Shown piece after piece: positions 36,596 to 37,118 of a DNA stretch of 64,000 nt. The notes under the pieces were generated by a model. That model was given only the letters and a program-made list of their open reading frames with translations, searched no databases and was not told the DNA's origin. Numbering within the stretch: position 1 is the first letter of the stretch; each line of letters starts with the position of its first letter. The position numbers and the translations under genes were made by a program. The stretch comes from Escherichia coli (GTDB lineage Bacteria; Pseudomonadota; Gammaproteobacteria; Enterobacterales; Enterobacteriaceae), in the NCBI RefSeq assembly GCF_003018235.1, contig NZ_CP027437.1; one strand, 5' to 3'.

Positions 36596-36607
36596 CCATC
36601 AATGAAA

Positions 36608-36632
36608 AAGCCCACATCTGTGGGCTTTCATG
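36608..36632. terminator. Hairpin terminator after ypjA (aaaaagcccaca...tgtgggcttt)
   Basis: Inverted repeat flanked by A/T runs. Confidence 0.5.
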
Positions 36633-36755
36633 TCACCAGGAGCCGCGGCTCCTTTGCGTATCCTTTTTTGTCTCCTCACCGTCTGGTCGGTGTCTTGCTG
36701 AGACTTCTAACTTCCTGTTTTTGTTGGTGTTGTCCTTGCACCGTCCAATCATGAT

Positions 36756-37118
36756 TGGTGGAGCTGGCGGGAGTTGAACCCGCGTCCGAAATTCCTACAT
36801 CCTCGGTACTACATGCTTAGTCAGTCTTTACATTCGCTTGCCAGCTGCGGACGGACACGCCACTAACAAACTAGCCTGATTAAGTTTTAACGCTTCAACC
36901 CCAGGCAGGGCTTCCACGCGATCTCTTTTGGGTTTGACCTCTCTTGATCCCCGTCCTAAGAGCGGAGGCTAGGGAGAGAGGGCTCTAAGCAGGTTATTAA
37001 GCTGCTAAAGCGTAGTTTTCGTCGTTTGCGACTATTTTTTGCGGCTTTTTACGAGGCCAACCGCCCCTCGGCATGCACCATGGGTTTCGCAAATCCCGTC
37101 GAATCCAGAATCAGCCCC
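36756..37118 (-). ncRNA. ssrA: tmRNA (SsrA), 363 nt
   Basis: Reverse complement matches tmRNA: 5' GGGGCUGAUUCUGGAUUCGACGGG, tag-peptide ORF region, 3' tRNA-like end ...GCCAGCUCCACCA. Confidence 0.95.

Follow-up and report, generated by a model that had tools for sequence, protein, structure and literature searches.

The window, a stretch of 64,000 nucleotides from the Escherichia coli contig NZ_CP027437.1 (assembly GCF_003018235.1), carries the tmRNA gene ssrA on its minus strand, with smpB upstream of it and the autotransporter gene ypjA on its 3' side. The features of this junction are as follows.

36596..36755, no strand: spacer of 160 bp from the ancestral ypjA stop to the ssrA 3' end, delimited by alignment to the K-12 attR-side flank
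36605..36629, no strand: bidirectional hairpin AAAGCCCAC-ATCT-GTGGGCTTT with an A/T run, from folding and sequence
36756..36770, no strand: attachment-site core of the CP4-57 type, 15 nt, TGGTGGAGCTGGCGG on the plus strand, comprising the last 15 nt of ssrA
36756..37118, minus strand: ssrA (tmRNA), from ARAGORN and Rfam RF00023
37333..37815, minus strand: smpB, 160 aa, upstream neighbour of ssrA, from Pfam and comparison with K-12

The ssrA gene is 363 nt long, encodes the tag peptide ANDENYALAA and matches RF00023 over its full length (295 bits, model positions 1-374), with ARAGORN and RF00023 agreeing on a 3' end at 36756. Compared with K-12 it has a single substitution in 363 nt, at 37080 and hence far from the 3' end, and smpB differs by 6 substitutions. 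On the RNA strand the gene ends in CGCCAGCTCCACCA, which is listed as the wild-type ssrA end by Onodera et al. (2022, PMC10107115), and the 15-nt core is intact and occurs only once in the window. The gap between ypjA and ssrA, put at about 160 bp in the initial annotation of this DNA, is exactly 160 bp (36596..36755) when measured from the TGA at 36593-36595 with which the ancestral ypjA frame terminates; this TGA, on which the initial annotation based its figure, is the ancestral stop, but the first in-frame stop is a premature TAG at 36473-36475. No integrase gene lies beside the ssrA 3' end, the interval between ssrA and ileY holding only the ypjA remnant, a Resolvase fragment and ypjCB.

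In K-12 MG1655 the order is smpB, ssrA, CP4-57, psaA, the 160-bp spacer, ypjA, pinH', ypjB, ypjC and ileY (ssrA, absent as a feature from the MG1655 table used, was placed by alignment). The K-12 gene order assumed in the initial annotation, with CP4-57 between ssrA and ypjA, was named there as the point on which the reading could fail, and this order is correct. CP4-57 occupies 2755941..2777971 in MG1655 (22,031 bp, intA to ypjF), prophage DNA follows ssrA directly in the alignment, and psaA is a 14-bp pseudo-ssrA copy that corresponds to the core TGGTGGAGCTGGCGG less one base. With CP4-57 and psaA taken out of K-12, the two sequences are collinear. Aligning it to the MG1655 stretch with blastn produces two blocks that meet exactly at the ssrA 3' end, with window 30361..36770 matching the ypjB-ypjA-psaA side of K-12 and window 36755..40000 the ssrA-smpB-recN side. 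Furthermore, in a three-way alignment the window tracks the K-12 attR-side flank as far as the core and then continues along the K-12 attL side into ssrA, so that the flank found on the distal side of the K-12 prophage adjoins ssrA with zero extra bases. The spacer measures 160 nt in both genomes (from psaA to the ypjA stop in K-12) and differs by 5 substitutions and no indels.

Searches of the window with the 22-kb CP4-57 element by blastn and tblastx returned zero matches anywhere in the 64 kb, and neither intA beside ssrA nor the alpA-to-ypjF cargo was found in this way. The core is present in a single copy at the junction, with no psaA-like second copy beside the 160-bp flank, and the sole integrase in the window (55164-56168) shows no relationship to IntA (E = 0.72). 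Together with the breakpoints at the ssrA 3' end, the lack of any match confirms that CP4-57 is missing at ssrA, as had been read from the letters alone. Core blocks of the window are 96.9-98.3% identical to K-12, ypjA is 94% identical and the part from ileY to ypjC 90%. Among 5,426 complete E. coli genomes, even the closest reach only 98.1-98.8% identity over 8-20 kb, in islet and core genes alike, which suggests a lineage without a representative among the complete RefSeq E. coli, for example a divergent phylogroup, a cryptic clade or Shigella.

We conclude, with a probability of about 0.92, that the ssrA 3' end in this genome is an unoccupied attB, empty of a CP4-57-type element. The site shares its flanking gene order, the 15-nt core and the 160-bp flank with the K-12 ssrA-CP4-57 locus (Wang et al. 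2009/2010; Onodera et al. 2022, PMC10107115); it differs in lacking CP4-57 and psaA and in having a wild-type end, as opposed to the tmRNA-inactivating deltaT357 found in K-12 after excision. The attB is intact, its identity with K-12 in core and flank suggests that it may be available to IntA-type integrases, and the wild-type ssrA 3' end supports, at the level of sequence, the free attB that had been proposed.

The emptiness could also be secondary: a CP4-57-like element, or another one that targets ssrA, may once have sat here and later been precisely excised. Excision of CP4-57 and its relatives is documented (PMC3105296; PMC10107115). In K-12, excision of CP4-57 leaves CGCCAGC-CCACCA (ssrA deltaT357) and abolishes trans-translation (Onodera et al. 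2022, PMC10107115), and a one-base change after CP4-57 excision is also described by Wang et al. (2010, PMC3105296). A K-12-type excision would thus be expected to give deltaT357, and when the window ssrA was aligned against Table 1 of PMC10107115 this scar was absent. With a wild-type 3' end and no deltaT357, the site represents a wild-type attB, distinct from the product of a K-12-style excision. The same table gives a wild-type 3' end after excision for Fels-2, SopEPhi and the CFT073 island, and the fossil layers described below indicate that the ssrA locus was visited repeatedly, both of which would fit an earlier occupation. Against this stand the spacer, which is undisturbed relative to K-12, and the finding that the empty site is the commonest single state in the species, which makes ancestral emptiness the more economical explanation. 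We consider past occupation followed by excision unlikely and infer that the lineage never held CP4-57.

On the molecular level, P4-like island tyrosine integrases, such as IntA of CP4-57, recombine in the last ~15 nt of ssrA, and the incoming element then lands between ssrA and the downstream flank. The latest layer in the window appears to have seen no such integration, the ssrA end running straight into the 160-bp flank that lies beyond CP4-57 in K-12. The ssrA transcript would then probably end at the hairpin at 36605-36629 and not at a prophage-supplied terminator. This hairpin has a 10-bp stem in both the MFE and the centroid structures, the whole spacer folds with z = -3.2, and the hairpin with its U-run lies 126-152 nt beyond the mature ssrA 3' end on the minus strand. 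A simple terminator scan left it unflagged; its T-run overlaps the stem. The predicted fold makes it a likely intrinsic terminator for both ssrA on the minus strand and ypjA on the plus strand. The tmRNA here has a native 3' end, independent of a terminator supplied by a prophage, and, with this end and no CP4-57, the strain cannot undergo the switch by which excision inactivates tmRNA in K-12.

The tmRNA gene is an integration hotspot in E. coli, reportedly the theme of 'Traffic at the tmRNA gene' (Williams 2003). To place the empty junction within the species, we consider three probes. Of 5426 complete E. coli genomes, 2568 contain a 231-bp probe of spacer and ssrA as one contiguous stretch, and 1385 do so for a 901-bp probe that also takes in the ypjA 3' end; the K-12 ssrA-intA junction, counted at probe coverage of at least 80%, was present in 674. 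The empty site is the commonest single state in E. coli and an ordinary one, found in about half of the complete genomes. The label 'non-K-12' given to the strain in the initial annotation is true at this locus but trivial, since the empty junction is shared by 47% of complete E. coli genomes and the label therefore carries little information. The same counts argue against an assembly artefact in which a prophage was collapsed or assigned to a different contig. Draft assemblies can break at prophages whose ends are repeated, although nothing specific points to this here; the junction runs without a gap and agrees over its entire length with 2568 finished genomes, the core repeat measures no more than 15 nt, and both flanks are collinear with K-12, which leaves an artefact vanishingly improbable. 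Among the occupied states, strain 120899 has a P2-like prophage at ssrA, and other complete genomes have intA-type islands there. The tmRNA locus is documented as a multi-element hotspot in E. coli (hotspot #9; Hochhauser et al. 2023, PMC10121019). That hotspot takes various elements, whereas the copy in the window is empty and holds old relics only.

These relics lie in the islet between ileY and ssrA, which contains the following genes.

28870..28945, plus strand: ileY, tRNA with anticodon CAU, called tRNA-Met by ARAGORN and corresponding to the tRNA-Ile(CAU) at the collinear place in K-12
29697..31115, plus strand: ypjCB (DUF5507 + DUF5508), from Pfam and tblastn
31441..31611, plus strand: pinH remnant, a serine recombinase fragment covering Resolvase profile positions 43-100 of 145
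32028..36595, plus strand: ypjA/ehaD autotransporter pseudogene, from tblastn, Pfam and comparison with K-12

The islet had been described as ypjC-like, a pinH remnant and ypjA, and the Pfam matches agree with this (DUF5507/DUF5508, the Resolvase fragment, and AIDA/Pertactin/Autotransporter), with the caveat that ypjA and ypjCB are both disrupted. The ypjA frame corresponds to residues 146-1526 of K-12 YpjA in tblastn and contains AIDA repeats, a Pertactin domain and an Autotransporter beta-domain. Two lesions interrupt it: a 1-nt deletion in a G-run near 32467 causes a frameshift, and a K-12 CAG codon is changed to TAG at 36473-36475, with loss of the last 40 codons of the beta-barrel domain. 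Because of the frameshift and the premature TAG, ypjA is a pseudogene in the window; it also has two in-frame 6-nt deletions relative to K-12. A pinH pseudogene is found at the collinear place in K-12. The ypjCB gene, in a region of low G+C content (31-36%), is disrupted by a TAA in its reading frame (30042-30044). K-12 has a different lesion, by which ypjC and ypjB are separated; strain BEC1-S17-ESBL-09 has an intact ypjCB (485 aa).

Between ypjCB and the pinH remnant we observed a composite junction made up of three adjoining parts.

31210..31271, minus strand: candidate attachment arm of the Fels-2 type, containing a strong intrinsic terminator whose stem spans 31238-31261
31272..31285, no strand: fossil pseudo-ssrA 3' end, TGGTGAGCTGGCGG, 14 nt, identified by alignment as the core less one base
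31286..31345, no strand: stretch similar to the CP4-57 right end (P arm), 41/60 ungapped

Attention is drawn to this region by a weak blastn match between window 31271..31347 and the CP4-57 right end plus psaA. The fossil TGGTGAGCTGGCGG is a direct repeat of the real core at 36756-36770, in the same orientation. For the adjoining arm, 41/60 at 31286 is the top score in the whole window on either strand, the runner-up reaching 32, and 100,000 shuffles gave at most 33/60. The three-part junction is also conserved in K-12 and in strain BEC1, although annotated in neither record, and the structure is therefore old.

On the other side of the fossil, the minus strand of segment 31210-31271 contains a G+C-rich hairpin of 12 bp (z = -6.1), with a U-run behind it. 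Joined to the fossil, the segment gives 76 nt (31210-31285) that share 95-97% identity with the att region beside ogr in Fels-2, SopEPhi, RE2010 and the Escherichia phages 500465-1 and Cartapus; about 60 of the 76 nt, the terminator hairpin included, fall outside the annotated 47-bp attP core. The same arm directly follows ssrA in Citrobacter, Enterobacter, Raoultella and Leclercia loci. Fels-2 D and Ogr were sought by tblastn in 34 fetched ssrA loci (L003-L036), a set to which the window does not belong, and the loci with the arm variant seen in the window all carry Fels-2-like D and ogr nearby. In the window, the sequence to the left of 31210 is ypjCB (DUF5507/DUF5508), with no P2-like gene seen there. 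The arm in the window resembles the ssrA attachment region of the Fels-2/SopEPhi family (P2-like, Peduoviridae), from which the relic differs in that no P2-like gene is seen beside it, the arm lies 5.5 kb from ssrA, and the ssrA part is shortened to 14 nt, one base having been lost. The hairpin at 31238-31261 follows ssrA in many genera and was first read as the native enterobacterial ssrA terminator; the loci with D and ogr and the phage arms make a phage origin at least as likely. We therefore describe 31210-31271 as a Fels-2-type junction relic or possibly as native flank copied by phages.

A second sequence class follows the shared ssrA terminator in loci of Enterobacter, Franconibacter, Photorhabdus, Morganella, Proteus and Arsenophonus (L009, L013, L004, L017, L026 and L006). 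It features GTGGAC direct repeats (GTGGACGTAATGTGGACAT) that resemble integrase arm-binding sites, and no Fels-2-like D or ogr was found near these six ssrA flanks. A further idea, that some E. coli have kept a pre-island arrangement, was dropped: no E. coli genome covers at least 80% of a synthetic ancestral junction in which the ypjCB flank and terminator were joined to ssrA, and the 66% matches are P2-like prophages at ssrA.

The composite junction raises the possibility that the site is occupied after all, with the segment from pinH' to ypjA as a resident degenerate island. The direct repeat of the ssrA end at 31272-31285 followed by the CP4-57-like arm (41/60), the Fels-2-type arm with its terminator beside that repeat 5.5 kb from ssrA, and the heterogeneous G+C content across the ileY-ssrA interval all point in this direction, and we regard such a resident as rather probable. 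The segment nevertheless lacks an integrase, its recombinase is only a fragment, and K-12 shares it yet took in CP4-57 too, which means that it does not block the site. This reading is a refinement of the empty attB and not a contradiction of it: ssrA is unoccupied only as regards an intact, integrase-bearing element, and the adjoining pinH'-ypjA segment (31286-36755) is probably a decayed, integrase-less earlier tenant of ssrA that is present in most E. coli.

In order to rationalise the arrangement around this empty attB, we propose that a Fels-2-type junction, or native flank, once stood at the ssrA 3' end. A CP4-57-like island with pinH and ypjA would then have integrated in the terminal 15 nt and pushed the junction 5.5 kb away; the island would have lost its integrase and become fixed, and K-12 would later have added CP4-57 while the present genome did not. 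The homologies are directly visible in the alignments, and the order of the old integrations is what we infer from them. On balance it is an even bet that the YpjA/EhaD segment, which over a quarter of the surveyed complete E. coli genomes share, K-12 among them, was cargo of an ancient CP4-57-like island integrated after a Fels-2-like phage had reshaped the flank, such that 31210-31345 would record two or more fixed integrations as a readable stratigraphy and the ssrA terminator of the original arrangement would have been displaced by 5.5 kb. This two-integration stratigraphy may not have been explicitly described before. The tandem ssrA islands of Dehalococcoides, with their degenerate direct repeats, reportedly likewise reflect serial integration at a single ssrA, with partial 3' ends marking the older events (PMC3146451); they belong to another phylum and other integrases, whereas the older layers of the window consist of ~60-nt arms and one autotransporter pseudogene.

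The empty ssrA site is real, was rightly interpreted and is an already known state of a well-studied hotspot. Taken alone it matters little, being a strain-typing fact. What the present analysis adds is the pseudogene status of ypjA and ypjCB, the demonstration that the ssrA end is wild type and not a scar, and the relic junction at 31210-31345. The layered relics provide a small, clear example of a variable region built up by successive integrations at a single RNA gene.

Several further differences from K-12 were observed elsewhere in the window. The stretch from 55078 to 64000 is taken up by the left part of a prophage that K-12 lacks and that continues past the right end of the window; it has the following integrase gene.

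55164-56168, minus strand: tyrosine integrase of the 55078..64000 prophage, the only integrase in the window

The prophage is inserted immediately after pheL, at the point where the K-12 sequence goes on into the raiA/raiZ 3' end, and its other genes include an HTH repressor-like gene, Cox, Ash, a 3'-5' exonuclease, RecE/ExoVIII, DUF1627 and DUF977. Of the 5426 complete E. coli genomes, only SCU-111 and O158:H23 CFIAFB20140388 contain the pheL-prophage arrangement at a probe coverage of at least 80%. On the minus strand at 26058..28310, in a region of low G+C content (36-42%), lies an intact alpha-amylase-like ORF of 750 aa whose K-12 counterpart, ygaQ, is annotated as a pseudogene. Finally, two intergenic gaps differ in length: the proX-ygaY gap (6220..6581) is about 360 bp compared with about 100 bp in K-12, and the ffh-rpsP gap (46277..46292) is about 15 bp compared with about 127 bp.
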